64,000 nt of DNA, taken from NCBI GenBank assembly GCA_012271265.1, contig JAAXGQ010000015.1:6153-70152 (forward strand). The letters run 5' to 3'. This DNA is from Vicinamibacteraceae bacterium. GTDB lineage: Bacteria; Acidobacteriota; Vicinamibacteria; Marinacidobacterales; Marinacidobacteraceae. Position 1 is the stretch's first letter; every line of letters begins with the position of its first letter. The notes beneath the pieces were generated by a model, which was not told the DNA's origin, ran no database searches, and saw only the letters and a list, made by a program, of their open reading frames with translations. Both the position numbers and the translations under genes were made by a program. Positions 13,535 through 62,090 of the stretch are shown here, one piece after another.

Positions 13535-13598
13535 TGCAGACGCTGCGGCGCAGGCCGGCGAGGACGCCGGCGCTCCATGGGACCGGCGCTCCAACCGT
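13535..13598. repeat. solo copy of the GC-rich palindromic repeat (TIR-type core)
   Basis: ctgcggcgcaggccggcgaggacgccggcgctccatgggaccggcgctcc is the same core as the 54-bp array. Confidence 0.8.
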
Positions 13599-24806: not shown

Positions 24807-25381
24807 ACCTGACGCGAGAGGAAGCCTGGGCGCACCTCACCGACTGGTGCGAAACGGAATCGCTGCGCAAACACGCGCGGGCGGTGGAGGTGGTCATGCG
24901 CGCCGCCGCCGCCCGTTACGGAGGTCCCGATGCCGACCCGGAGGTCTGGGGGATCGCCGGGATGCTCCACGACGCCGACTACGAGAAATGGCCGGAGGAA
25001 CACCCGAACCGGATCGTGGCCTGGCTGCGGGAGCGCGGTGAAGAGGAGCTCGCCCACGCCATCTCCGGCCACTACACGAAGTGGGGCGTCGAGCTGAAGT
25101 CGCCCCTGGACCGGGCTCTGCTCGCCTGCGACGAGCTCACCGGCTTCATCTGCGCCTGCTGCCTGGTCCGGCCCGACGGGGTGTCGACGCTCAAGGCGAA
25201 GAGCGTGAAGAAGAAGCTGAAGTCCCGGGGATTCGCCGCCAAGGTGGAGCGGCACGAATGCCGGGTGGGCGCGGAACTGCTCGAAGTGGAACTCGGCGAG
25301 CACATCACCTTCATCATCGGCGCCCTCCGTCCCCACGCCGATGAGCTCGGCATCACCGGCCGAAGACTTCCCCCTTCCTGA
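24803..25381 (+). CDS. HD-domain phosphohydrolase
   Basis: HARAVEVVMRAAA...AGMLHDADYEK gives the H...HD motif of HD-superfamily hydrolases; ATG at 24803 overlaps the DoxX stop. Its last about 130 bp are duplicated downstream at 27672-27808. Confidence 0.75.
   Translation: MNLTREEAWAHLTDWCETESLRKHARAVEVVMRAAAARYGGPDADPEVWGIAGMLHDADYEKWPEEHPNRIVAWLRERGEEELAHAISGHYTKWGVELKSPLDRALLACDELTGFICACCLVRPDGVSTLKAKSVKKKLKSRGFAAKVERHECRVGAELLEVELGEHITFIIGALRPHADELGITGRRLPPS
25222..25358. repeat. direct repeat A: intact 3' end of the HD gene, duplicated downstream of the inserted cassette
   Basis: attcgccgccaaggtggagcggcacgaatgccgggtgggcgcggaactgc...gagcacatcaccttcatcatcggcgccctcc...ctcggcatcacc is about 88% identical to 27672-27808. 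Confidence 0.85.
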
Positions 25382-27562: not shown

Positions 27563-27671
27563 CCCTGCGGGGCTCGGGGCCTTCCCGCAAGCCGCTGGCA
27601 CGTGTGCGCTTGAGCAGCTGCCGCGACAAACCCGCAGCCGTCGCTCGCGGGGGAGGAAGGACGTAGCTGGA

Positions 27672-27808
27672 GTCCAGGGCGTTCGCCGCCAGAGTGGAGC
27701 GGCACGAATGCCGGGTGGGCGCGGAACTGCCCGGAGCGGAACTCGGCGAGCACATCACCTTCATCATCGGCGCCCTCCTTCCCCAGGGCCGAGGAACTCG
27801 GCATCACC
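27672..27808. repeat. direct repeat B: diverged displaced copy of the HD-gene 3' end (right boundary of the insertion)
   Basis: gttcgccgccagagtggagcggcacgaatgccgggtgggcgcggaactgcccggagcggaactcggcgagcacatcaccttcatcatcggcgccctcc...ctcggcatcacc; it would encode VERHECRVGAEL...EHITFIIGAL, like the HD C-terminus. Confidence 0.85.
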
Positions 27809-27899
27809 TGCCGCCGCCTCCACCGCTGAGCCCCGCGACGCTCGGCACATCCGGGCCGAGGCAGCCGTGCTCTCCCCGGCGAGCTGCGCGAGCTGGTCG

Positions 27900-29500: not shown

Positions 29501-29559
29501 GATCATCGACGCCCTCGCCGCCCCGCCTCCGGTGGAGAGGGGAGGTTCTGCGGCGGAGG

Positions 29560-29618
29560 TCCATGACCGCCTGCGGCGGTGGCCGGTGAGGACACCGGCG
29601 CTCCAGGCGGGCAGGGCG
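29560..29618. repeat. solo copy of the GC-rich palindromic repeat
   Basis: ggccggtgaggacaccggcgctccaggcgggcagggcgg is the TIR-R-type variant seen in the 39.1-40.3 kb array. Confidence 0.7.
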
Positions 29619-32397: not shown

Positions 32398-32468
32398 ACC
32401 CCCGCGCCCACCTGGAGCGCCGGCGTCCTCGCCGGCCTGCGCCGCACCGTCCGAGGACGCCGGCGCTC
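32398..32468. repeat. minimal palindromic repeat element (both inverted termini with a short spacer)
   Basis: ggagcgccggcgtcctcgccggcctgcgccgcaccgtccgaggacgccggcgctcc has the two TIR cores in inverted orientation separated by about 12 bp. Confidence 0.8.
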
Positions 32469-32844
32469 CATAGGGCGTCGCGATGGCTGGCGGGATGCGC
32501 CTCCCGCCAGCTCGATTGCGCCAATATTCGGATTGACATGAATGAAACGTGACTTGTTGGTGACAATACGACGACTTTCCGGCCGACTCCATGTTCCGTG
32601 GCTTGCGTCCCAGGTTCACGGTTGCCCCGAGACGATCCCGACCGTTCTAATGGCGTTGACGGATGCGATGTGAACCAGATGGCTCTCGTGAGCTGCTCGC
32701 TCTTTGTGGATTCTGCTTGGCAGTCCCCGGTCACCCGACCTCCGGATGGACGGTGACGGCGAACCATCGGAACGCGCCGTCGCGCGTTCCGGACGACTTC
32801 TCAACCCCACGATCGTTCTCTCAGCAAGGAGGGTAGTTCGTACC

Positions 32845-35819: not shown

Positions 35820-37193
35820 GTGAGTCAAAGAACTTGGGGGCTTTCGTTCCCGATCCCGGGCGCGGCGGCGCTCGCGCTCGTCCTCGCCGCGGCCGGAGCG
35901 GCGGCGCAGAACCGGCTCGCCCTCGTCGGCGGGATGCTGCTCGACGGCTACGAAGTCCCACCGCTCCATCACGCGGCGGTGCTCATCGAGGGCGACCGCA
36001 TCGTCCGGGTGGGACGGGCGGCGGAAGTCGAGATCCCCGCCGACTACGAGGTGGTGGATACCAGCGGCCGGACGATGTTGCCGGGACTGATCGATCTCCA
36101 CGCCCATCTGGTGATCCTGGGACACGGGTCCTACGGCGAGTGGTTCCCGTGGATGGAGGAGCGCGGCCGGGAAGAGACGATCGACGAGGTGATGGCCATC
36201 TCGGCGAAGCAGTTGCTGATGGCCGGGGTGACCACCGCGATGGACCTCGGCGGACCGCTCCGCGGCAGCCTGAACGTCCGCGACCGGGTCAACGCGGGGG
36301 AGATTCCGGGGCCGAGGCTGTGGATGAGCGGGCCGTGGCTCGCGCGCCGGGTCGGAGTCTTTCCGGAGGATTACCAGATCGAGGTCACCAGCCCCGCGGG
36401 GGCGGCTGCGTCCGCGGACGAGCTCGCCCGCGCCGGCGTGGACGTGATCAAGGCCCACTCGGGGTTGATCCTCGAGGACTACCGGGCCATCGTCGAAGTA
36501 GCCCACCGGCATGGCCTCAAGGTCCATGCCCACGTCTACGCGCCGGAGGACGTCCGGAACGCGTTCGAGGGCGGCGTGGACGTCCTGACCCACGCCGGCT
36601 CGGCGGGGACTCCGCCCTACCCGCCGGAGCTACTCCGCGACATCGTCGTCCGCGGAGTCCCGGTGGTGATCACCGGAGCCCACCGGGTGTGGGTCTTTCC
36701 CGCGACCGTGGCGTTCCCCGAACGGCTCCAGGACCCGAGGCTGAACGCGGACTTTCCCCCGGACATGTACGCCGAGGTCCAGCGCTCCCTCGAGAACTTC
36801 CACACGCTGCGGTACTTCCGCACCACCCCGCGTCAGATGTTCTTCGGGGATGCCTCGCTCGGCCAGTTCATCGACGCCGGAGCGGTCATGGGGATGGGCA
36901 CCGACTCGGGGACGCCGATGAACTTCCACACCGAAGCGATGTGGAGGGAGATCAAGTCCCACGTGGATCTCGGGATGTCTCCCCAGCGAGCCATCTCCGC
37001 GAGCACCCGGATCAACGCGCGGATCCTCGGCGTCGCCTCGGACCTGGGCACCATCGAGGCCGGCAAGCTCGCCGACATCATCGTGGTCCGCGGGGATCCG
37101 CTCTTCAACATCATGGCGCTCGCCGATGTGGAGACCGTCGTCAAGGGCGGGAGAGTCTTCAAGGGTGGCTCGGCCTCGGCCGTGAGGCCCTGA
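35820..37193 (+). CDS. amidohydrolase-family metallo-hydrolase, secreted (paralog 1)
   Basis: Signal peptide; metal-binding LIDLHAHL (HxH), VHAHVYAPED, and the terminal D in GMGTDSG. 60-65% identical at protein level to 37649-38974. Confidence 0.8.
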   Translation: MSQRTWGLSFPIPGAAALALVLAAAGAAAQNRLALVGGMLLDGYEVPPLHHAAVLIEGDRIVRVGRAAEVEIPADYEVVDTSGRTMLPGLIDLHAHLVILGHGSYGEWFPWMEERGREETIDEVMAISAKQLLMAGVTTAMDLGGPLRGSLNVRDRVNAGEIPGPRLWMSGPWLARRVGVFPEDYQIEVTSPAGAAASADELARAGVDVIKAHSGLILEDYRAIVEVAHRHGLKVHAHVYAPEDVRNAFEGGVDVLTHAGSAGTPPYPPELLRDIVVRGVPVVITGAHRVWVFPATVAFPERLQDPRLNADFPPDMYAEVQRSLENFHTLRYFRTTPRQMFFGDASLGQFIDAGAVMGMGTDSGTPMNFHTEAMWREIKSHVDLGMSPQRAISASTRINARILGVASDLGTIEAGKLADIIVVRGDPLFNIMALADVETVVKGGRVFKGGSASAVRP

Positions 37194-37232
37194 GTCCCCA
37201 GGATCCGACGCAGAGCGCGGAGGCCACAACTC

Positions 37233-37571
37233 ATGACGCGACGCCTGGTGGTCCGCTGGGCCCTTTCCCTGCTGGCGCTCGCGCCTTTTGCGCGCGTCCG
37301 GCTCTTCGCCCAGGCCCGGAGTCTTGATGAGGGGGACCGCGCAACCCTCCGCGCCCTGGCGAGAGTGGCGCTGCCGAGTCCACTCGGCGACGACGGCGCA
37401 AGGCGTGTCCTGGGAGTGTTCGGCAGGCTCGCCGGTGACGGCGCCATCCTGGACACCCAATCGTTGACGTTCTCTGCGCTCACGCTGCGTTCGGCGGAAG
37501 AGACCGGGCATGATCTCGGTTGGACGCCGGCGGCGACGGAACTCCCCCTTCCCGGATCGGAGGCGCCGTGA
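37233..37571 (+). CDS. hypothetical small secreted protein
   Basis: 112-aa ORF with a signal-peptide-like N-terminus in the 450-bp gap between the amidohydrolase paralogs; no recognisable motifs, so coding status is uncertain. Confidence 0.3.
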   Translation: MTRRLVVRWALSLLALAPFARVRLFAQARSLDEGDRATLRALARVALPSPLGDDGARRVLGVFGRLAGDGAILDTQSLTFSALTLRSAEETGHDLGWTPAATELPLPGSEAP

Positions 37572-37648
37572 ACCCGGTGGGGGACGCCGCCCGGTCCGCC
37601 CGCCCGCCGAAAGCGGCAGTGGATTCCTGCACTCGGGAGGTAAGCCTC

Positions 37649-38974
37649 ATGGGGCTCCGTGGAACGAAATCCACGCTGGTGGTGCTCGGGCTGGCGCTCG
37701 CGGCGCCCGCGGGCGCGCAGCAGCGACTCGCCCTGGTGGGCGGGATGCTGCTCGACGGGTACGAGGTTCCCCCTGTGCACCACGCCGCGGTCGTGATCGA
37801 GGGCGCCCGGATCGTCGCCGTCGGCCGGGCCGCCGAGATCGAGATTCCGGACGACGCGGAAGTGATCGATACGAGCGGGCGGGTCATGCTGCCGGGCCTG
37901 ATCGACCTCCACGCCCACTTGGCCATCCTCGGACACGGCTCCTACGGCCGCTGGTTTCCCTGGCTCGAGGAGGAGGGCATCTCCATCGAAGAGGTCATGG
38001 AAATCTCGGCGAAGCAGCTTCTTCTCGCCGGCGTGACCACCGCCGTGGATCTGGCGGCCCCGCTCGAGGCCAGCATCTCGCTGCGGGACCGGATCGCGCG
38101 CGGAGAAATCCCCGGCGCCCGGATGCTGATGAGCGGTCCCTGGATCACCAGCGCGGTCCGGTTCTGGCCGCCGGAGTTTCAGATCGGTGTGTCGTCTCCC
38201 GAGGAAGCGTCCGAGGCGGTGGAGCGTCTCGCCGCTGCGGGCGTGGACGTGATCAAGGCGTGGGCCGGCCTCACCCGAGAGGACTACCAGGCAATCGCGG
38301 ACACCGCGCACGAACACGGCCTGCGGGTACACGCTCATGTCTACGGGCCGGAGGAGGTCAGGAACGCGCTCGAGACTGGTATCGACGTGCTGACCCACGC
38401 CGGATCGGCCGGCACGCCCCCCTATGAGCCGGAGCTGGTCCGCGACATCGTGGTCGCCGGCCGGCCGGTCGTGATCACCGGCGCCCACCGCGTCTGGGTG
38501 TTCCCGGCGACGGTGCAGTTCCCCGAGCGCCTCCAGGATCCGAGGCTCCGCCAGGACCTGCCGGCGGTGATGTACGAGGAGTTCCAGCGCAGCTTCGAGA
38601 ACTTCCACACCCTCGGCTACTTCCAGACCACGCCCCGGCAGATGTTCTTCGGCGACGCCTCCCTCGGCCAGTTCATCGACGCCGGGGCGGTCATGGGGAT
38701 GGGCACCGATTCGGGGACGCCGCTGAACTTCCACACCGAGGCGCTCTGGCGCGAGATCAAGGCCCATGTGGACCTCGGGATGGCGCCGCTGGACGCCATC
38801 GCCGCAGCGACCCGCATCAACGCCCGGATTCTGGGCATGGGCGACGAGCTGGGAACGATCGAGGTCGGCAAGCTCGCGGACATCATCGTGATCGACGGCG
38901 ATCCTCGGTTCGACATCATGGCCCTCGACGACCCCGTGCTGGTCGTCAAGGATGGCCGCCCGTACCGGCGCTGA
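37649..38974 (+). CDS. amidohydrolase-family metallo-hydrolase, secreted (paralog 2)
   Basis: Signal peptide MGLRGTKSTLVVLGLALAAPAGAQ; the same HxH / HAHVYGPEE / GMGTDSG motifs as paralog 1. Confidence 0.8.
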   Translation: MGLRGTKSTLVVLGLALAAPAGAQQRLALVGGMLLDGYEVPPVHHAAVVIEGARIVAVGRAAEIEIPDDAEVIDTSGRVMLPGLIDLHAHLAILGHGSYGRWFPWLEEEGISIEEVMEISAKQLLLAGVTTAVDLAAPLEASISLRDRIARGEIPGARMLMSGPWITSAVRFWPPEFQIGVSSPEEASEAVERLAAAGVDVIKAWAGLTREDYQAIADTAHEHGLRVHAHVYGPEEVRNALETGIDVLTHAGSAGTPPYEPELVRDIVVAGRPVVITGAHRVWVFPATVQFPERLQDPRLRQDLPAVMYEEFQRSFENFHTLGYFQTTPRQMFFGDASLGQFIDAGAVMGMGTDSGTPLNFHTEALWREIKAHVDLGMAPLDAIAAATRINARILGMGDELGTIEVGKLADIIVIDGDPRFDIMALDDPVLVVKDGRPYRR

Positions 38975-38994
38975 CCGGCGAGGGAGCAAGAACG

Positions 38995-39070
38995 ATGAGG
39001 CTCGTGAGAACCGCGTTCGGCGTTGCGGCGGCGACGCTGCCGTTGCCCGTTTCCGCCACGCACGGGTTCA
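38995..39070 (+). pseudogene. 5' remnant of a PQQ-dehydrogenase gene, truncated by the repeat array
   Basis: ATGaggctcgtgagaaccgcgttcggcgttgcggcggcgacgctg encodes MRLVRTAFGVAAATL. This equals the first 15 codons of the intact PQQ-DH at 46340 (MKLVRTAFGVAVATL), then the sequence runs into the repeat array. Confidence 0.7.
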
Positions 39071-39144
39071 GCGGATTGCTGCGGAGCGAGTGAGGTGGCG
39101 CCGGTTTTCTGGACAGGTCGTCAAGGTGGATTCCACGAACTGGT

Positions 39145-40262
39145 GGAGCGCCGGCTCCATGGAGCGCCGGCGTCCTCGCCGGCCTGCGCCTTGCCTGCGA
39201 CGATCCACAGTCCGGGCGGACGGACGCTCCATGGAGCGCCGGCGTCCTCGCCGGCCTGCGCGCAACTTCCGTCCCCGCGGCAGTCTCGCGTCCACAGCGC
39301 CGCCGTGCCGACTCATCCGTGGGCCGGTGAGGACACCGGCGCTCCAGGCGGGCCGGTGAGGACGCCGGCGCTCCAGAACTGACCCCCCTGACGTATCCAC
39401 CCCCTGAACTATCCGCCCCCTGAACTATCGAGCGCCGGCTCCATGGAGCGCCGGCGTCCTCGCCGGCCTGCGCGCAAACTCCGTCCCCGCGGCAGTCTCG
39501 CGCCTGTAGCGCCGCCGTGCCGACTCATCCGTGGGCCGGTGAGGACACCGGCGCTCCAGGACGGAGAGGACGCCGGCGCTCCAGAACTGACCCCCCTGAC
39601 GTATCCACCCCCTGACCTATCCGCCCCCTGAACTGTCGAGCGCCGGCTCCATGGAGCGCCGGCGTCCTCGCCGGCCTGCGCGCAACTTCCGTCCCTGCGG
39701 CAGTCTCGCACCTGCAGCGCCGCCGTGCCGACTCATCCGTGGGCCGGTGAGGACACCGGCGCTCCAGGCGGGCCAGTGAGGACGCCGGCGCTCCAGAACT
39801 GACCCCCCTGACGTATCCACCCCCTGAACTATCCGCCCCCTGAACTATCGAGCGCCGGCTCCATGGAGCGCCGGCGTCCTCGCCGGCCTGCGCGCAACTT
39901 CCGTCCCTGCGGCAGTCTCGCGCCTGTAGCGCCGCCGTGCCGACTCATCCGTGGGCCGGTGAGGACACCGGCGCTCCAGGCGGGCCGGTGAGGACGCCGG
40001 CGCTCCAGAACTGACCCCCCTGACCTATCCGCCCCCTGAACTAGCGTGCGCCGGCTCCATGGAGCGCCGGCGTCCTCGCCGGCCTGCGCGCAACTTCCGT
40101 CCCTGCGGCAGTCTCGCGCCTGCAGCGCCGCCGTGCCGACGGACCCGTGGGCCGAGAGGCCCACGGACCATTGCCCGCCTGCGGCGGGGGCCGGTGAGGA
40201 CACCGGCGCTCCAGGCGGGCCGGTGAGGATGCCGGCGCTCCAGAACTGACCCCCCTGACGTA
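39145..40262. repeat. five tandem about 210-bp units of a MITE-like element with 24-bp terminal inverted repeats
   Basis: Period about 210 bp, with unit starts near 39145, 39427, 39636, 39847 and 40044. Each unit is bounded by GGAGCGCCGGCGTCCTCGCCGGCC and GGCCGGTGAGGACGCCGGCGCTCC, which are imperfect reverse complements of each other. The interior carries C-rich short repeats (cccccctga). Units are more than 90% identical and there are no unique spacers. Confidence 0.9.
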
Positions 40263-40301
40263 TCGGCGCCCGCGCCGTCATCCCATCGGCGCCCTCTGCC
40301 G

Positions 40302-42395
40302 TCATCTGATCGGCGTCCGTTCCCGGGAGCCGCTTCCGAGCTGTCTCAGACGCTCCCGAACATCGTCCTGATCCGGCAGGAGTTCGAGGGAACGCTCCAG
40401 GTACCCGATCGCCCTCCGGACGTTCCCCAGCTCGGCCTCACAGGAAGCGAGCAGGTTGAGGACCTGCGGTTCGGCGCCGCGGAGGCGGACCGCCTGCTCG
40501 AGAAACCGAACCGCCCGGGCGGCCTGCCCCACTCGCTGGTAGGCCTCGCCGAGGACCACGACGGCATCGTAGCTCTCCGAGTTGTCCCGATACGCCGGCT
40601 CGAGAAGGGCGATGGCGGCGGAGGCATCGCCGCCCTCGAGGTGGAGGCGGGCGAGCGGCGCCCGGGCCGCCGCGAGGTCGGGCCGCCGCTCCAGCGCCCG
40701 CCCGAAGAGCTCCATCGCCCGCCGCCGATCGCCCTTCCCCTCGTACTGACTGCCGAGGACGGCGAGCACGGAGGCCGGGTCCGCGAAATCGGTCGCGCCG
40801 TACATCGCCCACGGACGGGCCACGGCCCCGCGCGGACTCACGTCGAAGTCGGAGACCTGGCTCGAGGCGGCCTCGCCCGACGCATTGACGAGCTCGATCC
40901 GAAGCCGGTAACGACCACCCACGGATACCGGCAGCTCCGTCATCTCCAGGACCGGACGGGTCCGGTACTTCGCAAGCGGGATCGTTTCGGACGCGAGCGG
41001 CGCCGCGTCGTCGCCGGCGGAAAGGACCCGGAAGCGGAGTTCGCCACCCTCGGAGGCGCCGCGGACGGGAACGTGGACGCGCAGCGGCTCTCCGATGGCG
41101 TAAACCCGCTTCGCATTGGGATGCAGGACGAGGCCGGAAACGACGTAGCTGCGATTCCCGCGCCTCGGCGCCGGCCCGGCCGGTTCTTCGGCGTTGTAGA
41201 GCAGCACCGGCTCCCCCAGAAACGGCTCGCCGTCCGGCAATTCGGGGACCCGCAAGCCGCCGTCGAACGACGTGTAGTCGCTGCGGGCCCGATTCTTGAA
41301 CACGATGCGCAACCGGTAGTCGCCCGGGACCAGCGGAAACAGGCTCCGGTAGGCGAAGGGGAGGCGCCCGACCCGCCGGAGCTCCGAGGGTCCGAGCTGC
41401 AGATACTCGATTCTGGACAGGGTATGAACGACCTCCCCGCCCGGCGAACTGACCTCGGCGTACACCTCGAAAGCCGTGTAGAAGCGGTTCTCCTCCTGCA
41501 TCAGGGTGAGATGCTGCGGGTCGATCTCGATGCTGAAATGAACCAGGCTTCCTCCCGCGGGGCCGGGGAGAACGTGCGCCGACACCGAACTCGGCATGAA
41601 GTTGAACAGGTACTCCGCCTCCACCATGCCGCGCGCACTCCTGGCGGCGTCTATGTAGCTCGTGTCCATGCGGCGCCAGGGCGACTCGTGGATGGTCGCG
41701 AGCACCTGGCCCGAGTCCAGGGCCCCGGCCTCGACCCCGGTCGAGAGCGAATACCCGCCCTGATCGGCCCGCATGGACATCGCGGCGTTGGCCAGCTCCG
41801 GAGAAATCTCCTGCAGGCGGACATAGGCCTCGGAGACGTCGTCGGCCAGAACGCCCATCCCCGGGATCAGGCTTTGCGGCCGATCGATGAAGTGGTTGTA
41901 GAGGCGCAACGCCCCGACGCCTCCGGGCTGAAAGAAGAGCAGGTAGAGAGGCGGCAGTCCGACGCGCGGATCGCCGTCATAGAACCACACCTCGGCGGGA
42001 TAGATGCCGCCGACGTTCCGGAAACCGGACCGGTCGCGGGGCTCCCCCAGCGTGATGTACATGCGTCCCCGATCGGTCTTCCAGCCGGGTATCGCCGCCT
42101 CGCCGCCGAGCCGGTGATTCGCATAGGCGATCCGGCGGTCATGCTCTTCGCGGAACTCGTTGATTTCGGTGAGGGGATCCGGGTCGCGGCGCCGCCAGAA
42201 GGCGGCGACGAAAGCGTCGCGTTCTTCCATGGTCCCGAGCTCGAGGAAGAAGTCCTTTTCGCGCTCGCTGATGATGTAGACGACTTCTTCAACAAGCCAT
42301 TTCCGGAATCTTTCCGGCAGCCGCTCGATGCGTTCGTCGGCAGCGGCCGCACCGGGCCCGAGGACGAGCGCGGCAAGGGAAAGGAAGCGAAGCAT
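40302..42395 (-). CDS. GWxTD-domain protein with C-terminal TPR repeats, secreted
   Basis: Signal peptide; IPGWKTDRGRMYITLGEP is the GWxTD signature (TIGR04514-like); C-terminal TPR region. Paralog of 48273-50369. Confidence 0.8.
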   Translation of the reverse strand: MLRFLSLAALVLGPGAAAADERIERLPERFRKWLVEEVVYIISEREKDFFLELGTMEERDAFVAAFWRRRDPDPLTEINEFREEHDRRIAYANHRLGGEAAIPGWKTDRGRMYITLGEPRDRSGFRNVGGIYPAEVWFYDGDPRVGLPPLYLLFFQPGGVGALRLYNHFIDRPQSLIPGMGVLADDVSEAYVRLQEISPELANAAMSMRADQGGYSLSTGVEAGALDSGQVLATIHESPWRRMDTSYIDAARSARGMVEAEYLFNFMPSSVSAHVLPGPAGGSLVHFSIEIDPQHLTLMQEENRFYTAFEVYAEVSSPGGEVVHTLSRIEYLQLGPSELRRVGRLPFAYRSLFPLVPGDYRLRIVFKNRARSDYTSFDGGLRVPELPDGEPFLGEPVLLYNAEEPAGPAPRRGNRSYVVSGLVLHPNAKRVYAIGEPLRVHVPVRGASEGGELRFRVLSAGDDAAPLASETIPLAKYRTRPVLEMTELPVSVGGRYRLRIELVNASGEAASSQVSDFDVSPRGAVARPWAMYGATDFADPASVLAVLGSQYEGKGDRRRAMELFGRALERRPDLAAARAPLARLHLEGGDASAAIALLEPAYRDNSESYDAVVVLGEAYQRVGQAARAVRFLEQAVRLRGAEPQVLNLLASCEAELGNVRRAIGYLERSLELLPDQDDVRERLRQLGSGSRERTPIR

Positions 42396-42827
42396 GGAAG
42401 TTCCGGGACTTATCTGACCACCGCCCCCCTCGGGAAGTCAACTCCCACGGCCCCGAAACTCACGCGCGCGGGCGGAACCGTTCCGTCGGGTTGGATCGCG
42501 GATACGGGGATTTGGATCAGGGGCCGCCCGCTTGCCGAAACGGAGCCCGTCGTACGGTATATCCTGTGATTTTTGAATGAGATACGGTGCATCGCGGGCA
42601 GACCGTCCGGGGCACCGGATTTGCATAGTGCAATGCACGCTGCAGTCGGGTTCGTTCCTTTGCGGGCCTTTGCGGGCCCGCGCAGCGGACCGCCTCTCGG
42701 ACCTACTCAGGAGGTGCCTATCGAGACCATGGCGCCGAGTCGTTGACGGGAGGGACGGCCCGGCCGCCGGCCCCTCCCCGGACGCCTCGCCCATTCAGCA
42801 ACACAACAGGAAGGGAGGACTGGCCCC

Positions 42828-45797
42828 ATGCCGAGTTTCATTCTTCGGACCCTCGCTGCGAGCACGATCCTGCTCGTCGCGGCCGCCCCGGCCCTGGCCC
42901 AGGGACAGGGGACGCTGACCGGGAGAATCACCGATCCCGAAGGATTGGCCCTCCCCGGGGTCGTCGTAACCGCCGAGAGCGATTCCATGCTGGGAACGCG
43001 CTCGGCGGTTTCCGACGGGGAAGGCGGCTACCGCCTAACCTCCCTCCCGCCCGGCATGTACACGCTGCTGGCGGAACTCTCGGGTTTCGCCCCGCTCCGG
43101 CGCGAAAACATCCAGGTCCGCACCGGCTCGAACTTCCGGGTCGACCTGCAGATGGCTCTCGGAAACGTCGAAGAGACCGTCACGGTCACGGCGGAGAGCC
43201 CCATGATCGAGATGAAGAAGCCGGGCCAGGTGATCACGATCGACGGAGACTTCCAGCGTGACGTCCCCGTCCAGGCGAGAAAGAACTGGACCGACTTCGT
43301 CGAACTCACTCCCGGGGTGAACGCCCGCAACTGGGACGACGGGAGCGGCCGGATGACGTTCTTCGGACATGGAACCGAGCACTTCCACCACGTGATGCAG
43401 CTCGAGGGACAGATCGCGAGCGCCTACGACGACAGTCAGTTGCCCTACATCCAGTTGACCACCGAAGCGATCGCCGACGCCGAGATCAAGACGGTGGGAG
43501 CGTCCGCCGCCGACCCGATGGGCAACGGCCTCATCATCAACATCATCACGAAGAGCGGCGGCAACGAGTTCGACGGCTCGGTCGGGATCGGCTACCAGCC
43601 CATCGACTGGAACAGCGACAACACCGGGGGCAAGGTCAGCTACAGCGACGACGTCGAGCGTTTCTTCAACCAGGACGAGCTTCCCTCGGCGGCGGGAACC
43701 CCGACGCTCCAGGAGGTGCAGCAGTTCGATTACGCCGTCGGCGGGCCCCTCGCCCGGGACAGGGCATGGTTCTTCCATACCGGCCGGCTGGCGCGGAACT
43801 CCGCCGAGATCAGCCGTACCGGGCGCGAGGTGGAGATTCTCGAATCGTTCGCGCCGGGGGTGGACCTCTTCCCGAACGTGTTCGAAGGTTTCTGGCCTTA
43901 CACGAAGGTCACGGCGCAGCTCGGGGCAAACCACAATTTCTCCGGCTATCACCAGTTCGACGTCGCCCACCTTTCGAGCGCCCGCGAGTACCACACCGTC
44001 AATTACAACTTCAACAAGACCGGCGGCCACCTGCTCGGCGGCAAGGTGACCTCGGTCTGGGGCCCGACGCTGACCTCCGACATCACCGTATCCATCAACG
44101 ACAAGCGCTCCGAGACCTCCATTGACACGATCAACGATCTGGGACTTTCGGGACCGCAGATGACGATCCACGAGGAAGCGCTCCCCTCGGCTGGAGTGCT
44201 CGTGGGCAGCGGCCGGATCCTGGAGATCGGAAACCGGACGACCTACGGCGAGGATCCCTCCTCCATGCTGGTCATCCGGACGGATTTCACGCTCTACCGG
44301 GGCAGTCACGAAATCCAGACCGGAATCTTCGCGGCGCCCCGCAACCGCCGGACGAGTTACACGCAGTACCTGAACGGGGGCCACAATCAGGAAAACCACT
44401 ACCTGGTGGACCCGAACGATCCCGGCGGCGGACACCTGCCCTTCCACCGGCGCATCTATGACACCACGGAAATCAAGAGCCGGGAGGCGCGGGACCGGAA
44501 CATCGCCTTCTACCTCCAGGACGCCTGGAGCATCACCGACCGCCTGAACATCACTGCCGGCCTCCGCGTGGACTTCGTGAACCGTTATGACGCGATCAAC
44601 GGAATCACCCGGATGAACAGCACCGAGCTGGGGCCGCGGGTGGGCTTCTCCTGGTCCGTGACCGAGGACGCCCGGAACGTGGTGCGCGCCAGTTTCTCCC
44701 GGGTGCACGAGCAGGTGAACGGCCGCGATGCGGTGACGAGCTTCGGCTCCTCGGCCCGCGTCGGGTGGCGTGACGAGTACGACGTGGACTTCGACGGTGT
44801 CTTCGAGACCGTGGTGGCGACGCCGCCGCGGGCCGGAGAAATCGCGAACTACGAGTTCGACCCGACCCTGCGCCAGCCGCGCACCGACGAGTTCGTGGCC
44901 GGCTACCGCCGTCAGTTCGAGGGCGAGCTGGCGCTCGATGTGGCCTACATCTACCGGAACATCAGCGACGGCTACGCCACCGTCGACGTCAACGGCATCT
45001 ATCCCAGCGGACCCTACATGCCCTTCGGGGGATACGGGCTCATTGATCCCAACCGGGGTCAGCTCAACCAGTTGACGAACAACACCTGGATGGACCTCGT
45101 CTATCACGCCCTGGAGGTCGTGGTCGCGAAGCGGATGTCCAACAACTGGCAGTTCATGGGGAGCTTCAGCCGGCAGTTTCACCATCAGGCCGGCACCTGG
45201 AACCCGACGGATCGCGCCGGATTCATTCAGCCGGACGCCTTCGAGAACACGAAGTGCATCTGGATGCCGCGCGGCCTGCGCGACGACAACAGCTACCAGC
45301 TCGGCTCGAACTCCACCTATTGCCCCACCTGGCGGGATTACTCGCTCCGCCTGGGCGCCACCTACCAGGCGCCCTTTGACGTCCTGCTGACGGGTTCCTA
45401 CACCCACCAGGCGGGTCCCTGGTCGGGCGCTATCTTCACCCGGATCGACGAGCCCGACCCGACGTTCGGGCCCGCGAGGGTGACGCTCGCGAACGGCAGC
45501 ACCCAGCCGAACCCGCTGGCGGACCGGACCCGCTTCATGTTCGACACGAGGGACATCGGCCAGGTCAAGCTCGGAGACACCAGGCGTTTCTCGGTCAAGG
45601 TGGCGAAGATCTTCGACATCATGGGACCGAATCAGAACATCGAGCTCTCGCTCCAGGTCTTCAACCTCCTGAACCTGGGAGACTTCCAGCAGTACACCTA
45701 CAACGGGGCGAACGCGGTGTTCAATCCGAACTTCCTGCAGCCCCGGAACCGGCAGTCCGGACGCGGTCTCCAGTTCAACGCCATGTTCCGCTTCTAG
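42828..45797 (+). CDS. TonB-dependent receptor with carboxypeptidase-regulatory-like N-terminal domain (paralog 2)
   Basis: Signal peptide and GTLTGRITDPEGLALPGVVVTAES...YRLTSLPPGMYTL (CarbopepD_reg-like); the beta-barrel ends in FRF. Confidence 0.85.
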   Translation: MPSFILRTLAASTILLVAAAPALAQGQGTLTGRITDPEGLALPGVVVTAESDSMLGTRSAVSDGEGGYRLTSLPPGMYTLLAELSGFAPLRRENIQVRTGSNFRVDLQMALGNVEETVTVTAESPMIEMKKPGQVITIDGDFQRDVPVQARKNWTDFVELTPGVNARNWDDGSGRMTFFGHGTEHFHHVMQLEGQIASAYDDSQLPYIQLTTEAIADAEIKTVGASAADPMGNGLIINIITKSGGNEFDGSVGIGYQPIDWNSDNTGGKVSYSDDVERFFNQDELPSAAGTPTLQEVQQFDYAVGGPLARDRAWFFHTGRLARNSAEISRTGREVEILESFAPGVDLFPNVFEGFWPYTKVTAQLGANHNFSGYHQFDVAHLSSAREYHTVNYNFNKTGGHLLGGKVTSVWGPTLTSDITVSINDKRSETSIDTINDLGLSGPQMTIHEEALPSAGVLVGSGRILEIGNRTTYGEDPSSMLVIRTDFTLYRGSHEIQTGIFAAPRNRRTSYTQYLNGGHNQENHYLVDPNDPGGGHLPFHRRIYDTTEIKSREARDRNIAFYLQDAWSITDRLNITAGLRVDFVNRYDAINGITRMNSTELGPRVGFSWSVTEDARNVVRASFSRVHEQVNGRDAVTSFGSSARVGWRDEYDVDFDGVFETVVATPPRAGEIANYEFDPTLRQPRTDEFVAGYRRQFEGELALDVAYIYRNISDGYATVDVNGIYPSGPYMPFGGYGLIDPNRGQLNQLTNNTWMDLVYHALEVVVAKRMSNNWQFMGSFSRQFHHQAGTWNPTDRAGFIQPDAFENTKCIWMPRGLRDDNSYQLGSNSTYCPTWRDYSLRLGATYQAPFDVLLTGSYTHQAGPWSGAIFTRIDEPDPTFGPARVTLANGSTQPNPLADRTRFMFDTRDIGQVKLGDTRRFSVKVAKIFDIMGPNQNIELSLQVFNLLNLGDFQQYTYNGANAVFNPNFLQPRNRQSGRGLQFNAMFRF

Positions 45798-45831
45798 ATC
45801 GCCAGGTCGCGAACGATCCCGTGTGAACGCG

Positions 45832-45876
45832 AAGGCCCGTGCGCCGTCAGCCGGCGGCGCGCGGGTCCCTTTTTTG
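45832..45876 (+). terminator. rho-independent terminator after the TonB-dependent receptor
   Basis: GC-rich imperfect hairpin gcccgtgcgccgtcagccggcggcgcgcgggtccc followed by TTTTTT, 35 nt after the stop codon. Confidence 0.6.
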
Positions 45877-46149
45877 AGGCGAATTCCATGCCTGGTGGCG
45901 CAACAGGTCCGGATCGCCTGCGGCGTCCGCGTTTCCGCGAACTGACAGGATGTGTTCGGCGATGGCCGCAGGATGGAAAGCACGTCGTACTGGGTGCTTC
46001 TGCTCGTGCTGCCGGCTGTGTTGGAACTGAATCCCGAACTCATCGTGGAAAGAAGATGCAGGGCGCGTATCGTGGGACTCACCATCAGCATCACGTTTCC
46101 CTGATTGCCAGCGTGCTGTGGTGGGTGCGGGCGGGATAGCGGCTCGGAC

Positions 46150-46320
46150 GGCGGCGAGCGGGCGATCTCCGGCGCCCGGAGCGGGCTTCCTGGGCGGGCG
46201 CCGTCGAGGCGGGCGGGCTCGCGGACATAATCGTCATCTCCGGCGATACCCGGCTCGACATCATGGCCCTCGACGACCCCGTGCTGGTGGTCAAGGACGG
46301 CCGGCCGTACCGGCGCTGAC
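46150..46320 (+). pseudogene. 3' remnant of an amidohydrolase gene (segmental duplication fragment)
   Basis: Translates to ...AVEAGGLADIIVISGDTRLDIMALDDPVLVVKDGRPYRR*, matching the C-terminus of 37649-38974 (..IEVGKLADIIVIDGDPRFDIMALDDPVLVVKDGRPYRR*); upstream sequence is degenerate. Confidence 0.75.
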
Positions 46321-46339
46321 GAGTGAGGGAGGGAGAACC

Positions 46340-48262
46340 ATGAAGCTCGTGAGAACCGCGTTCGGGGTCGCGGTGGCGACGCTGCTGCTTTCCGTCTCCG
46401 ACGCCCACGCCCAGCGGGCCGACTGGGAAACCCACGGCGGCGATCCGGGGGGGATGAAGTACTCGTGGCTCGACGAGATCAACCGGGACAACGTGGACCG
46501 GCTCGAAGTCGCGTGGACCTGGGAGACCGGGGAGGAACCCCTCTCCATGGCCAGCTCTCCCATCCGGGGCGAACAGGTCGCGCCCGGGAAGTTTCAGGGG
46601 ACTCCGGTCGTCCTGGACGGGGTCATGTACGTCAGCACCTCCTACAGCCGCGTGGCTGCGCTCGACGCGGCCACCGGAGAGGAGCTCTGGGCCTACGACC
46701 CCCGCGCCTACGAGTGGGGGAATCTCCCGCGCGGCTGCCGTTTCTGCCACCGAGGCGTCGCCGTGTGGACCGACGGCGAGGAGCGGCGCGTCTTCATCAA
46801 CAGCCGCTGGATGCTGGTCGCGCTCGATGCGCTGACCGGGGAACCGATCGCGTCGTTCGGCAGCGGCGGGGTCGCGGACCTCACCGAAAACCTCATGTGG
46901 GAGACGAACCGGCTCCTGTACACGAACACCTCACCGCCGGTGGTCTACAAGGACCTCGTCATCGTCGGCAGCGGTGTTCCCGACAACCGGATCTTCCGGA
47001 GGAACCCGCCGGGCGACGTACAGGCGTTCCACGCCCGCACCGGGGAGTTCGTCTGGAGCTTCCACACGATTCCCCAAGAGGGGGAATACGGCAACGACAC
47101 CTGGGAGGACGGCTCGGCGTCCTACACGGGATCGGCCAACGTCTGGGCGCCCTTCACCGTGGACGCCGAGCGCGGACTCGTCTATCTGCCGGTCAGCACG
47201 CCGAACAACGACTACTACGGCGGCCATCGAAAGGGGGACAACCTCTTCGCGGAGTCCATCGTCTGTCTCGACGCCAACACCGGCAGGCGGGTCTGGCACT
47301 TCCAGACCGTGCGTCACGGCATCTGGGACTACGACCTTCCGGCGCCGCCCAACCTGATCACCATCGAGGTGGACGGCAGGACGATCGACGCGGTGGCGGT
47401 CGTGGGGAAAACCGGATTCGTCTACGTCTTCGACCGGGTCACCGGCGAGCCGGTGTGGCCGATCGAGGACCGCCCGGTTCCGGCCAGCGACGTGCCCGGC
47501 GAGCGCGCCGCGACGACCCAGCCCTACCCCACGAAGCCGCCGCCGTTCGGCCGGCAGGGGTTCACCACGGACGATCTGATGGACTTCACCCCCCAACTGA
47601 AGGCGAGGGCGCTCGAGGTCGTCAAGGACTATCGCCTGGGCGCCATGTTCACCCCGCCCTCGCTGGAAGGGACGGTCATCCTGCCGGGAATCTGGGGCGC
47701 CGGGAACTGGGGCGGAGCGGCGTTCGATCCGGGTACCGGGACGCTCTACGTCAAGGCGACCAACTGGCCCTCGGTGTTCCGGGTGGCGCCGCCCGATTCG
47801 CCTCTGGTGGAGGCCGACTACCGGGGCTCCGGCTTCGGCGCCCGGCTGGAACTCGTCCGTGGCGTCCCGGTGCACAAGCCCCCCTACGCCACCCTCACCG
47901 CCCTCGACCTGAACGCCGGCGAGCTGCTCTGGCAGATCACCCTCGGCGATTCGCCCCAGATCCGCAATCACCCGTTGCTGAGGAACCTGGATCTTCCGCA
48001 GCTCGGGGTGGCGCCGCCGCAGCACGGACAGTCCGCGGCGCTCGTGACCGAAGGGGGACTCCTCTTCATCAGCGCCGCGAGCGACCATCTCTACATCTTC
48101 GACAAGGCGGACGGCGCGTTGCTCCGGGAGATCCCGCTGGGCGGCGGCGGGTTCGGCAACCCGGTCACCTACCTCGCCGGTGGACGCCAACTGGTGTCGA
48201 TCGCGACATCGCAGTCGGACGGATCCGAAGCGAAGATCCTCACCTTCCAGTTGCCCCGGTAG
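46340..48262 (+). CDS. PQQ-dependent quinoprotein dehydrogenase (paralog 2)
   Basis: Signal peptide MKLVRTAFGVAVATLLLSVSDAHA and the same tryptophan-docking repeats (ELWAYDP, FVWSFHT, RVWHFQT, ELLWQIT); about 60% identical to 22427-24376. Confidence 0.85.
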   Translation: MKLVRTAFGVAVATLLLSVSDAHAQRADWETHGGDPGGMKYSWLDEINRDNVDRLEVAWTWETGEEPLSMASSPIRGEQVAPGKFQGTPVVLDGVMYVSTSYSRVAALDAATGEELWAYDPRAYEWGNLPRGCRFCHRGVAVWTDGEERRVFINSRWMLVALDALTGEPIASFGSGGVADLTENLMWETNRLLYTNTSPPVVYKDLVIVGSGVPDNRIFRRNPPGDVQAFHARTGEFVWSFHTIPQEGEYGNDTWEDGSASYTGSANVWAPFTVDAERGLVYLPVSTPNNDYYGGHRKGDNLFAESIVCLDANTGRRVWHFQTVRHGIWDYDLPAPPNLITIEVDGRTIDAVAVVGKTGFVYVFDRVTGEPVWPIEDRPVPASDVPGERAATTQPYPTKPPPFGRQGFTTDDLMDFTPQLKARALEVVKDYRLGAMFTPPSLEGTVILPGIWGAGNWGGAAFDPGTGTLYVKATNWPSVFRVAPPDSPLVEADYRGSGFGARLELVRGVPVHKPPYATLTALDLNAGELLWQITLGDSPQIRNHPLLRNLDLPQLGVAPPQHGQSAALVTEGGLLFISAASDHLYIFDKADGALLREIPLGGGGFGNPVTYLAGGRQLVSIATSQSDGSEAKILTFQLPR

Positions 48263-48272
48263 GGAGCCCGTC

Positions 48273-50369
48273 GTGAGCGCCTCGAGGGCACGCCGCGCCG
48301 GAGTCCGTGTCCTGGCGGGTTCGATTCTGGCCGCAGGGCTCGCGGCGCCGCTCGCGGCCCAGACCGAGGAGGAACGGCTCGCGCGTCTGACCCCCGAGCA
48401 CCGGGCGTGGGTGGAAGAGGAAGTCGTCTACATCATGACCGACGCGGAGCGGGAGTTCTTCCTGACGCTGGAGACCCTCGATGAGCGGCAGCGCTTCATC
48501 GAAGCGTTCTGGCGGAAGCGGGACCCGGATCCGGCGAGTCCGGCAAACGAGGCCGAAGAAGAACACTACCGGCGTCTCGCGTTTGCGAACCTCTCGCTGG
48601 CGGACGACACCACCCGCCCCGGCTGGATGACGGATCGGGGCCGCATGTTCATCCTCCTGGGCGAGCCCCGGGAACGGCAGCGCTTCGACGGACTCAACGA
48701 GATCGTTTCGACCGAGCTCTGGTTCTACCAGAGCGAGGCCGGGGTGGGGCTGCCGTCGTTCTTCTACCTGGTCTTCTTCCGGCCGCGCGACATCGGCGAA
48801 TACCGGCTCTATCATCCGGCGCTGGACGGTCCGAGAAGCCTGTTGCGAGGCCGCTACGCCTCGCTGGACACCACCGACCCGGCGCAGATCGTCGTGACGC
48901 TGGGGGACATCTCCCCCGAACTCAGCCGCGCGTCCCTGTCCCTGGATCCCAGCGATCCGGGTGACCTCATCAGCGGCCGGGCGTCGCTCGGGACCGACAT
49001 CCTGCTGGACCGTATCTGGGAGGCGCCGCGGCGGCGCATTCGCACCGACTATCTCGATGCCGCCCGCCGGTATGGCGACCGGGTCAGCGCGGACTACTCC
49101 TTCAACTTCGTGCCGAATCGAAGTGTCTTTCGGGTGCTGCTCGCCCCGGACGCCAGCGCGCTCGTCCACTACTCGGTCGAACTCGACCCGCAGGACATGG
49201 CGCTTCAGGGCGACGAGGCGCAGGCCCGGTTCTACACGATCATGGACCTGAGCGTGGAGGCGCGCGATCGGGCGGGCCGCCTTGTCCACGCCGAGGATCG
49301 CGAACTCGTCGTGGATCTCTCCGCCGCGCAGATGGAAGCGGCGCAGGCCTCACCGTTTGCTTTTCAGGGCAGCTTCCCCCTCATCCCGGGAGACTTTGAT
49401 GCGAGCGTGGTCCTCCGGAACCGAGTGATGAGACGGTTCACCGTCGCTGAAGCCACGGTTTCCGTCCCGGAACCGGACCGAGGCGCCCCGGTCATGAGCG
49501 ATCCGGTGCTCGCCTTCGCGGTGCAGCTCCAGGAAGACCAGGTGACTGCGTTCGCGGGTGGAGGTCGTCGTTTCCGGCCCGCCGCCGATCATCTCTTCTC
49601 GCTCGGGGACCCCCTCACCGCCGGGGTGCAGGTCACGGGCGCGGCAAGCGGCTGGACGGTCCGGCTCACGCTGGGCGCGGGTGAGACGACGCTGCGCGAA
49701 CGCGTCCTCCCCGCTGCCGATTTCGGGAACGGCGGGGGCTACGCGGAGTTCGACCTCGCGGGTCTGGGAACCGGGACGCACTGGTTTCGCGCCGAACTCC
49801 ACGACCCCCAGGGGACGGTGGCGATGGTTCGCGACAGTGCGTTCCAGCTCATCCCGAGGACGGCGCCGCGCGCGGGCTACGTCCACCGAAGCGGCGCGGA
49901 TGCCGCGACGGCGGGCATGCTCGCCTGGACGCGAGGAAATCAGTTTCTCGCTCTGGGCCGGCTCGAAGCGGCGCGCGCGGAGCTCAAGCGGGCGGTCGCG
50001 GCCCATCCCGAGCTGGCCGAGGCGCGCTGGAGGCTTGCCGGCGTGTACCTGAGAACGGAGGATGCGGACCGGGCGCTGGAACTCCTGACCCCCCTGGAAG
50101 CCGAACACGGAGACCAGTACGAAGTGGTCGCCGGAATGGGGTTTGCCCACTACTTCAGGCAACAGTTCGAGGACGCCGCGCGCTATCTCGAGCGGGCCGT
50201 GGCGCTTCGGCCGCCAGGGACCGTGCTGTTGAACGCGCTGGGCGAAGCCCATGAACAGTCCGGCGACCTCGAACGGGCCGGCGCCGCCTTCCAGCGTTCC
50301 CTGGCGCTGGAACCGAATCAGCCGGTCATCGTAGAGCGCCTGGCCGATCTAAAGGCTAGACAGCCGTAG
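48273..50369 (+). CDS. GWxTD-domain protein with C-terminal TPR repeats (paralog 2)
   Basis: RPGWMTDRGRMFILLGEP GWxTD motif. GTG start at 48273, 11 nt after the PQQ-DH stop. Confidence 0.8.
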   Translation: MSASRARRAGVRVLAGSILAAGLAAPLAAQTEEERLARLTPEHRAWVEEEVVYIMTDAEREFFLTLETLDERQRFIEAFWRKRDPDPASPANEAEEEHYRRLAFANLSLADDTTRPGWMTDRGRMFILLGEPRERQRFDGLNEIVSTELWFYQSEAGVGLPSFFYLVFFRPRDIGEYRLYHPALDGPRSLLRGRYASLDTTDPAQIVVTLGDISPELSRASLSLDPSDPGDLISGRASLGTDILLDRIWEAPRRRIRTDYLDAARRYGDRVSADYSFNFVPNRSVFRVLLAPDASALVHYSVELDPQDMALQGDEAQARFYTIMDLSVEARDRAGRLVHAEDRELVVDLSAAQMEAAQASPFAFQGSFPLIPGDFDASVVLRNRVMRRFTVAEATVSVPEPDRGAPVMSDPVLAFAVQLQEDQVTAFAGGGRRFRPAADHLFSLGDPLTAGVQVTGAASGWTVRLTLGAGETTLRERVLPAADFGNGGGYAEFDLAGLGTGTHWFRAELHDPQGTVAMVRDSAFQLIPRTAPRAGYVHRSGADAATAGMLAWTRGNQFLALGRLEAARAELKRAVAAHPELAEARWRLAGVYLRTEDADRALELLTPLEAEHGDQYEVVAGMGFAHYFRQQFEDAARYLERAVALRPPGTVLLNALGEAHEQSGDLERAGAAFQRSLALEPNQPVIVERLADLKARQP

Positions 50370-61885: not shown

Positions 61886-61990
61886 CCCCCGGCTGAGGGA
61901 CGAGGATCGCGGTCCCTTTGGGGCCCTCAGTCCCCCTCCCGCCGGGCTTCGTCGAGCCCACACTCGCAGCCAGGAAAGCGAGGAGAGCAG

Positions 61991-62090
61991 TCTCCCGTTC
62001 GGGAGAAGGGCCGCTCCGCATCTCGACCTGGATGCCGCTCCCGGTGAGGACGGCGTGGTGGCGGAGCGGGTGCAGTCGCTCTTCGTCTGA
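61991..62090. repeat. direct repeat B': displaced copy of the SelA-like gene 3' end (right boundary of the second insertion)
   Basis: tctcccgttcgggagaagggccgctccgcatctcgacctggatgc...gagcgggtgcagtcgctcttcgtctga, encoding ..RISTWMP..VAERVQSLFV*. Confidence 0.8.

Follow-up and report, generated by a model that had tools for sequence, protein, structure and literature searches.

Repetitive extragenic palindromes (REPs) and other REP-type elements are single-strand DNA substrates of REP-associated tyrosine transposases (RAYT, also TnpA_REP; Y1 HUH enzymes), by which they are cut and rejoined in trans. The systems consisting of a RAYT and REPINs (REP doublets forming hairpins) are usually described as vertically inherited. 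REP clusters, bacterial interspersed mosaic elements (BIMEs), and REPIN clusters have been reported together with RAYTs in Escherichia coli, Pseudomonas, and Stenotrophomonas (PMC3116915, PMC3733652, PMC6006769). RAYT genes flanked by REPs are termed REPtrons (PMC6006769), the canonical foot of a REP is GT[AG]G (PMC6006769, PMC3733652), and REPs have been described as species-specific (PMC6006769). Furthermore, tyrosine transposase genes with non-GTAG inverted repeats, called TIRtrons or TIRYT, are known; one sharply delimited group among them belongs to Acidobacteria (Di Nocera et al. 2013, PMC3733652; subclass 2.1 in PMC6006769).

In this study, we analysed a stretch of 64,000 nucleotides (the window) from contig JAAXGQ010000015.1 of a Vicinamibacteraceae bacterium, with regard to the repeat array at positions 39145-40262. 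A preliminary description, made from the letters of this DNA, had regarded the array as five tandem copies of a miniature inverted-repeat transposable element (MITE) with 24-bp terminal inverted repeats (TIRs), which had replaced the body of a pyrroloquinoline quinone (PQQ) dehydrogenase gene. Our results suggest instead that the array is most likely a tandemly amplified REP cluster of the BIME/REPIN type, built on a RAYT-linked palindrome. As such it belongs to the known REP/BIME kind and is ordinary except for the identity of its palindrome across phyla.

Anatomy of the array and its palindrome

A leading solo copy of the palindrome and five tandem composite units of 196-235 bp each were recognised in the array (Table 1). 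Tandem Repeats Finder detected a period of 212 at 39226-40154 (4.5 copies, 92% matches) and nested periods of 29 and 16 nt inside every unit, and the units were mutually 92-99% alike (differing by 1-8%). Each of them contained one minus-strand and two plus-strand copies of the palindrome in the pattern (-)(+)(+): the minus-strand GGCCGGCGAGGACGCCGGCGCTCC was followed by a conserved spacer of approximately 65 nt, then by GGCCGGTGAGGACACCGGCGCTCC and GGCCGGTGAGGACGCCGGCGCTCC on the plus strand, and finally by two or three C-rich subrepeats of 16 nt. The five tandem copies of approximately 210 bp noted in the preliminary description were thus borne out by the period, by the alignment of the units, and by an independent contig (L094, see below). 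It had further assigned one 24-mer and its reverse complement to the ends of each unit; both orientations were indeed present in every unit, but as one minus and two plus copies. The C-rich repeats, which had been placed between the two arms, lay outside the inverted pair, and the hairpin with a 7-bp stem that had been assigned to the core was found inside the supposed TIR itself.

The palindrome forms a hairpin with a 7-bp stem and a 4-nt loop, GCCGGCG-AGGA-CGCCGGC, followed by a conserved unpaired GCTCC tail, and approximately 25-30 nt are conserved. In the other orientation, the basic element reads as a 5' foot, (T/C)GGGAGC, and then GCCGGCG-TCCT-CGCCGGC. It is accordingly a short (20-40 nt), hairpin-forming, imperfect palindrome, as a REP is. 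Within each unit, inverted repeats of 24-28 bp were 89-93% complementary, and the minus-strand REP pairs with the distal plus-strand REP over approximately 28 bp in the manner of a REPIN. Folding of one unit, which the preliminary description had proposed, gave a long hairpin for unit 3 with an RNA energy of -109.4 kcal/mol (z -5.3; DNA z -4.7), and none of 200 shuffles was as good. The fivefold (-)(+)(+) order, with REPs of alternating orientation, conserved linkers, and tandem reiteration, is the mosaic of a BIME. All six minus-strand REPs of the array were identical over approximately 36 nt, whereas the spacers varied. The joint from unit to unit, CTGAACTATCGAGCGCCGGCTCC, was similar to the original left flank of the array, ACGAACTGGTGGAGCGCCGGCTCC, which fits a composite that took in local flanking DNA.

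The array lies in the gap between the convergent 3' ends of an amidohydrolase gene (+) and a GWxTD/TPR gene (-), both identified with Pfam. An independent short-read contig of the European Nucleotide Archive (ENA) from another sample, L094, matched the window with 99.95% identity along 12,750 bp, a stretch that takes in the final 656 bp of the array (39646-40301). Because this contig reproduces the array, the array was confirmed to be real and not an assembly artefact. L094 terminates within the array, as is typical of short-read assemblies at repeats. Neither the sequence nor the unit alignment revealed direct repeats (target-site duplications) flanking the units, and the outer flanks of the array, ...GGCTCCA/TGGAGC and GCTCCA/GAACTGA, had no direct repeat in common. 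A second copy of the unit interior with its spacer was not found in the window; a 22-mer of the spacer gave only two chance matches in a scan of metagenome contigs, which is a weak negative in a collection where the source lineage is seemingly absent. The scan of the array for promoters and terminators yielded nothing, with neither T-runs nor terminator-like sites. Rfam at gathering thresholds detected only a tRNA-Gln in the whole window, and a permissive search of both arrays returned only plant miRNA hairpins far below threshold, which are chance matches to any long hairpin.

With up to three mismatches, the 24-mer palindrome occurred 27 times in the window, versus 0.01 expected from shuffles. 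Sixteen of these copies lie in the array, and the remainder were found at four further intergenic sites, so that solo copies, a doublet, a 54-bp array, and the 212-bp array all occur within 64 kb. In unit 5, the stretch 40165-40220 matched the region of a solo copy, 29558-29612, at 93%.

The 54-bp array (11392-11851) is located between divergent genes. It is bracketed by a direct duplication of approximately 80 bp (11307-11385 and 11877-11955; 93% identical over a 54-bp core), which carries a hairpin with a 10-bp stem, CCACCTCGTC...GACGAGGTGG. In the independent contig L095, a gene caller annotated an open reading frame (ORF) of 178 aa over this array.

Occurrence of the palindrome and a neighbouring transposase gene in other genomes

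One genome per species was scanned with the pattern GCCGGYGAGGAYRCCGGCGCTCC, a 23-mer in which one stem position is degenerate on both arms. The exact 23-mer was present in at least 93 DNA stretches, the genomes of which are assigned by label to approximately eight phyla or more; these assignments are record titles, and the labels of metagenome-assembled genomes (MAGs) are to be read with caution. Among the matches listed were Acidobacteriota (mainly Thermoanaerobaculia), several verrucomicrobial genera, Planctomycetota, Chloroflexota (Sphaerobacter), Caulobacterales-type Alphaproteobacteria, Competibacteraceae, Sumerlaeota, Sericytochromatia, Kiritimatiellia, and others. The flanks of the loci differed and their G+C content ranged from 46 to 74%; therefore, the matches do not stem from a single contaminant. 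Many of them formed inverted doublets with a spacing of 9-95 nt, in which the GGGAGC feet point outward. At the free stem position, the matches listed had C-G in 96 cases, T-A in 10, T-G in one, and C-A in one, and when only the loop and tail were anchored, further stems with both arms changed were observed at several other positions. The hairpin is thus under selection, because the changes in its stem are mostly compensatory.

Subsequently, all ORFs from the 23-mer loci were subjected to unsupervised clustering with no prior assumption. The only family directly adjoining the motif in several phyla, among the matches listed, was a Y1 transposase of 170-200 aa. Its members scored 103, 88, and 73 bits against NCBIfam NF047646 "REP-associated tyrosine transposase" (cut-off 80) and also matched Pfam Y1_Tnp, and the proteins (170-208 aa) carried the class-2 signatures NHVH ... 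WQREY ... YI[HEI][AND]NP (PMC6006769). No DDE transposase was linked to the motif in this clustering of the ORFs, the sole linked transposase being Y1. REP copies were located approximately 20-170 bp from the RAYT genes on one or both sides. Homologs of the RAYT formed more than 5,400 clusters. Furthermore, in the reverse test, all three homologs picked by protein alone (L105-L107) had the 23-mer with 0-1 mismatch at a distance of 8-135 bp. In total, the palindrome directly flanks a RAYT in nine loci (L021, L024, L029, L056, L064, L090, and L105-L107), and in three assemblies (L024/L044, L021/L046, and L105/L037) a motif-flanked RAYT coexists with copies of the motif on further contigs. Across phyla, the motif-flanked RAYTs were only 36-53% identical.

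In four Thermoanaerobaculia-like genomes (L024, 5212-7546; L105; L106; L107, 1165-3627), the RAYT stands beside the same dynamin-like GTPase gene, inverted relative to it in L024. The GTPases were 80-87% identical in amino acid sequence versus 60-67% for the RAYTs. Since the RAYT occupies one fixed position in these genomes, vertical descent is indicated there.

Phages were rejected as a vehicle of the palindrome, as the scan of 2.9 million viral contigs gave only two matches. A literature search for the motif string found no match; REP consensus sequences are printed in figures and are not comparable as text. Single matches to the 23-mer also came from unexpected taxa: two Akkermansia MAGs (L002, L085), a Bacteroidales MAG (L066), Frankia (L019), and Myxococcales (L063). 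In Frankia and Myxococcales, the stem combinations are unpaired, and the matches may be due to chance or to coding sequence; REP-like neighbours (a second GCCGGC hairpin) accompany the matches in Akkermansia, and mis-binning is possible. In Acidobacteriota, the REP was often preceded by a second hairpin (L018, L031, L035, L037, L040, L047, L067, L091, L093, and others), the stem of which co-varies (GGCGGCG/CGCCGCC, GCAGGCG/CGCCTGC, GCGGGCG/CGCCCAC) with GGGA or GAGA at the apex. This hairpin is joined to the REP by the linker GGCCA or CGACA, and the same two-hairpin module is present in unit 5 of the array (40145-40212).

History of the amidohydrolase and PQQ dehydrogenase locus

In two near-complete relatives (L100 and L101), a close homolog of the window's amidohydrolase gene is followed, after 13 bp, by a gene for a 640-aa PQQ dehydrogenase, another amidohydrolase gene, and a gene for a GWxTD/TPR protein. 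Their contiguous DNA maps to 37691-38971 of the window (to 39054 in L101) and resumes at 46201-48286, and the two mapped segments of the window overlap by a 182-bp duplication with 87% identity. This adjacency in the relatives, together with the mapping gap and the duplication, means that 39041-46203 is an insertion and that no gene was replaced. The preliminary description was correct in recognising a truncated start of a PQQ dehydrogenase before the array: an ORF beginning MRLVRTAFGVAAATL... (38995-39093) matches, over its first 46 nt, the start at 46340. However, the replacement of a gene body that had been deduced from it was in fact a 7.15-kb insertion with the 182-bp junction duplication. 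The gene at 46340 is intact as stated, but by sequence and gene order it is the syntenic ortholog of the relatives' gene and not a paralog. An exact look-up of its protein retrieved no identical record.

The inserted genes and their counterparts in the neighbourhood were only distantly similar (TPR_a/TPR_b, 36% identical; TBDR_b/TBDR_a, 27%), and a recent local duplication was rejected as their source on the basis of these identities. The pair of GWxTD/TPR and TonB-type genes was also found in a different context in L108 and L109, where no REP accompanies it; arrival of the array with the inserted genes was accordingly not supported. In relatives, neither the recipient site nor the donor-like site carries the array; it originated in this lineage, at the newly formed joint. 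Divergence amounts to 13% between the junction copies versus 1-8% between the units, and the amplification or homogenisation is therefore younger than the insertion. The recent amplification claimed in the preliminary description thus stands, with units 92-99% alike against 87% for the older duplication.

Other differences were observed in the same gene cluster. When window 35820-38974 was compared with L100 6318-11350, a GMC-oxidoreductase gene and small ORFs between two amidohydrolase genes were missing from the window, which also has no third amidohydrolase gene between those for the PQQ dehydrogenase and the GWxTD/TPR protein. These differences indicate that the cluster has been remodelled several times. 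Elsewhere in the window, an HD-domain gene has a duplicated 3' end (25215-25362 and 27665-27813; 90% identity, 149 bp), the two copies lying on either side of a block of approximately 2.4 kb with genes for a ParA-like ATPase and an AlbA_2/HATPase_c_4 protein. The occurrence of this pattern, an insert flanked by two copies of a gene end, both here and at 38859/46204 suggests an insertion mechanism that recurs in this genome. In addition, two gene 3' ends 1.5 kb apart (60427-60512 and 61987-62071) are 85% identical over approximately 86-100 bp, each extending into a stop codon; either tandem paralogy or a further junction duplication could account for them.

Table 1. Features of the array, its junctions, and the other palindrome sites (window coordinates; copies of the palindrome are termed REPs)
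Feature	Position	Strand	Basis
Whole putative REP cluster (solo REP and five units)	39145-40262	.	Tandem Repeats Finder, repeat families, unit alignment, Pfam flanks
Leading solo REP (u0), different spacer after it	39143-39189	-	Repeat family and alignment
Unit 1, 212 bp	39215-39426	.	Repeat families and alignment
Unit 2, 208 bp; second plus-strand REP degraded (GGACGGAGAGGACGCCGGCGCTCC, 4-nt deletion)	39427-39634	.	Motif scan and alignment
Unit 3, 212 bp; REPIN-like long hairpin, minus REP paired with distal plus REP	39635-39846	.	Folding
Unit 4, 196 bp; one 16-nt subrepeat fewer	39847-40042	.	Alignment
Unit 5, ~220 bp; 39-nt insertion, most of the C-rich tail missing	40043-40262	.	Sequence and alignment
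Second, different hairpin in the unit 5 insertion, CCGTGGGCC-GAGA-GGCCCACGG	40145-40166		Sequence
Minus-strand REP, example (GGCCGGCGAGGACGCCGGCGCTCC); others at 39161, 39445, 39653, 39865, 40061	39233-39256	-	
Plus-strand REP pair, example: GGCCGGTGAGGACACCGGCGCTCC (both arms changed, T-A pair) and GGCCGGTGAGGACGCCGGCGCTCC (T-G)	39322-39374	+	
Further plus-strand REP pairs (starts)	39534/39559, 39742/39771, 39954/39983, 40189/40218	+	
C-rich 16-nt subrepeats CCCCCTGAACTATCCR, 2-3 per unit	39384-39429; also 39592-39631, 39804-39849	+	
Left junction copy: true amidohydrolase 3' end (stop 38974) and 46-nt remnant of the PQQ dehydrogenase start	38859-39040	+	
Right junction copy: 116-nt amidohydrolase-end relic (46204-46319) and true PQQ dehydrogenase start (ATG 46340)	46204-46385	+	
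Insert of 7.15 kb, specific to this lineage, that separates the amidohydrolase and PQQ dehydrogenase genes: 100 bp, REP cluster, GWxTD/TPR (40302-42395, -), TonB-type outer-membrane protein (42828-45797, +), 400 bp	39041-46203	.	Absent from L100 and L101
Intact PQQ dehydrogenase	46340-48262	+	Pfam PF01011, 635 bits; 86% DNA identity and order kept with L100/L101
Second putative REP cluster, 8 head-to-tail copies of a 54-bp unit, between purH and selA	11392-11851	+	Reproduced in independent contig L095
Solo REP downstream of selA	13553-13576	+	Motif scan
Solo REP, T-A stem variant, 3' end of M14 peptidase gene	29581-29604	+	Motif scan, Pfam
REP doublet, second copy truncated, between M14 peptidase and TonB-type outer-membrane protein genes	32414-32470	.	

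Weighing of the readings and comparison with known systems

If the array is a REP cluster, its formation may be outlined as follows. REP hairpins, as single-strand substrates of a RAYT encoded elsewhere, would have seeded the new insertion joint. The 212-bp composite would then have been assembled from a minus-strand REP, a spacer of approximately 65 nt, a pair of plus-strand REPs, and part of the original flank, which today forms the 16-nt C-rich subrepeats. Replication slippage or unequal recombination between copies of the REP could have raised the composite to five tandem copies; we infer that the amplification was recombinational. If the cluster affects the flanking genes, it would most likely stabilise the 3' ends of the two convergent transcripts or terminate them, as an analogy with the REPs of E. 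coli suggests. Several observations weigh against such a cluster. Tandem amplification by itself requires no transposase, and both the window and the 93 or more other loci have GGAG(C) as foot, at a distance of 1 nt from the stem, instead of GT[AG]G at 0-2 nt; it is a variant of the described REP tag. No RAYT gene was detected in the 64-kb window (tblastn, best E = 0.09), and the cognate enzyme would have to be encoded elsewhere in the source genome, which is the weakest link of the REP interpretation. Moreover, approximately 110 kb from the nearest relatives (L100-L102, L108, and L109; 84-90% identical) contained zero copies of the palindrome, and its abundance in the source lineage is known from the 64-kb window only.

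Derivation from a DDE-type insertion sequence, by deletion of its interior and repeated head-to-tail insertion of a unit with 24-bp TIRs, would account for short, highly similar units that each bear complementary inverted repeats. We consider it very improbable, since the units lack flanking target-site duplications and hold three copies of the "TIR" instead of two, the "TIR" is self-palindromic and occurs alone and in same-orientation arrays, the unit interior has no other copy in the window or the metagenome scan, and it is a Y1 tyrosine transposase, an enzyme with hairpins rather than TIRs as substrates, that accompanies the motif elsewhere. The remark in the preliminary description that a head-to-tail array is odd for MITEs was the right clue. 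Its transposable origin survives in so far as the sequence is dispersed and probably mobilisable and non-autonomous, but as a self-complementary REP hairpin and not as a MITE with TIRs; likewise, the dispersed copies that it had proposed to look for exist for the palindrome, at the four other sites in the window, but were not found for the full unit in the window or the metagenome scan. Somewhat less remote, though still improbable, is a local satellite, namely intergenic DNA expanded by slippage with no mobile origin, in which the palindrome would be incidental. The tandem reiteration is indeed local, the spacer and the 16-nt tail have no matches elsewhere in the window or the metagenome scan, the unit joint is like the original left flank, and the array is missing in the relatives. 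However, the palindrome recurs at four other window sites, in at least 93 stretches from genomes labelled as many phyla, and next to RAYT genes, and slippage accounts for the copy number, not for the origin of the seed.

A structured element selected by the host, either as an RNA hairpin that terminates or stabilises transcripts or as an array of DNA sites for gyrase or IHF, with the link to the transposase being historical, seems unlikely but deserves more weight, and it is compatible with a REP cluster rather than exclusive of it. A role as DNA sites for host proteins such as gyrase or IHF has been proposed for the BIMEs of E. coli. The position between convergent 3' ends, the very stable fold, the identity of the six minus-strand REPs beside variable spacers, and T-G variants that pair in the plus-strand RNA only are all as such a function would have it. 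Nevertheless, T-runs, terminator-like sites, and Rfam matches above chance are lacking, the identity of the REPs is explained equally by recent amplification or gene conversion, and the other cluster (11392-11851) is bordered by divergent genes. That the array is a coding repeat or is CRISPR-like has next to no probability. Long ORFs do cross it in this genome of 70% G+C, as the 178-aa ORF does the 54-bp array in L095; but unit lengths of 196, 208, 212, and approximately 220 bp are not multiples of three and no frame persists, the motif occurs on both strands, and the "spacers" between the palindromes are conserved and not unique, which excludes a CRISPR array.

On the REP interpretation, the locus offers a clean, datable cluster at the joint of a lineage-specific insertion, for which relatives provide the empty recipient and donor-like sites. 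The analysis corrects the false call that a MITE had replaced a gene, accounts for the breaks of short-read assemblies at the array, and flags the spurious ORFs that gene callers put on such arrays. The palindrome is also a handle on a RAYT/REP family outside Proteobacteria, with seemingly one recognition sequence across phyla; if so, the specificity and horizontal spread of domesticated tyrosine transposases become directly testable. We tentatively raise the possibility, itself rather doubtful, that the identical 23-mer with the GGAG foot defines a REP family of unusually wide reach. It flanks RAYTs in genomes labelled Acidobacteriota, Chloroflexota, Planctomycetota, Verrucomicrobiota, and Alphaproteobacteria, and the idea depends on MAG labels and on the matches listed (at least 93). 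If this is true, a REP-RAYT pair keeps its DNA specificity through transfers at the level of phyla and could newly colonise a lineage, the latter point resting on REPs at five sites in the source lineage versus none in approximately 110 kb of its nearest relatives. Both points would contradict the prevailing view, in which REPIN-RAYT systems are species-specific and inherited strictly vertically.

Compared with the MITEs of the Correia/NEMIS, RUP, and ERIC types, the element is likewise short, non-coding, and repeated, with inverted repeats and a stable fold. It differs from them in that target-site duplications and dispersed full-length copies were not found, its self-palindromic ends occur alone, and the associated enzyme is a Y1 and not a DDE transposase. 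TIRYT/TIRtron is the nearest alternative label for it. As in that group, Y1 transposase relatives occur in Acidobacteria, with flanking non-GTAG inverted repeats that form moderately abundant families arranged as dimers or clusters. However, the published TIR motif GGGGWSAS (PMC3733652) does not fit this palindrome, and subclass 2.1 comprises longer proteins (median 238 aa) with the Y-motifs YIELNP and Y[IV]HLNP, whereas the RAYTs described here have 170-208 aa. By length and motifs, the latter seem closer to subclasses 2.4-2.7.

The most extensive likeness is to REP, BIME, and RAYT systems, and in most of the respects compared the element is a REP/BIME cluster. It shares with them a short, G+C-rich, extragenic hairpin with a conserved unpaired foot and, like them, is found singly, in inverted doublets, and in tandem clusters that take in flanking DNA, its inverted pairs giving long folds. 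In other genomes, one Y1/HUH tyrosine transposase gene is bordered by this sequence, as in a REPtron, and the RAYT resides at a fixed chromosomal position in one clade. On the other hand, it departs from described REPs and BIMEs in its GGAG(C) foot, its host, an uncultured acidobacterium, the long spacer between the inverted copies (65-95 nt), and the long unit (212 bp). Furthermore, unlike the species-specific REPs, an identical 23-mer accompanies RAYTs of only 36-53% identity across many labelled phyla.

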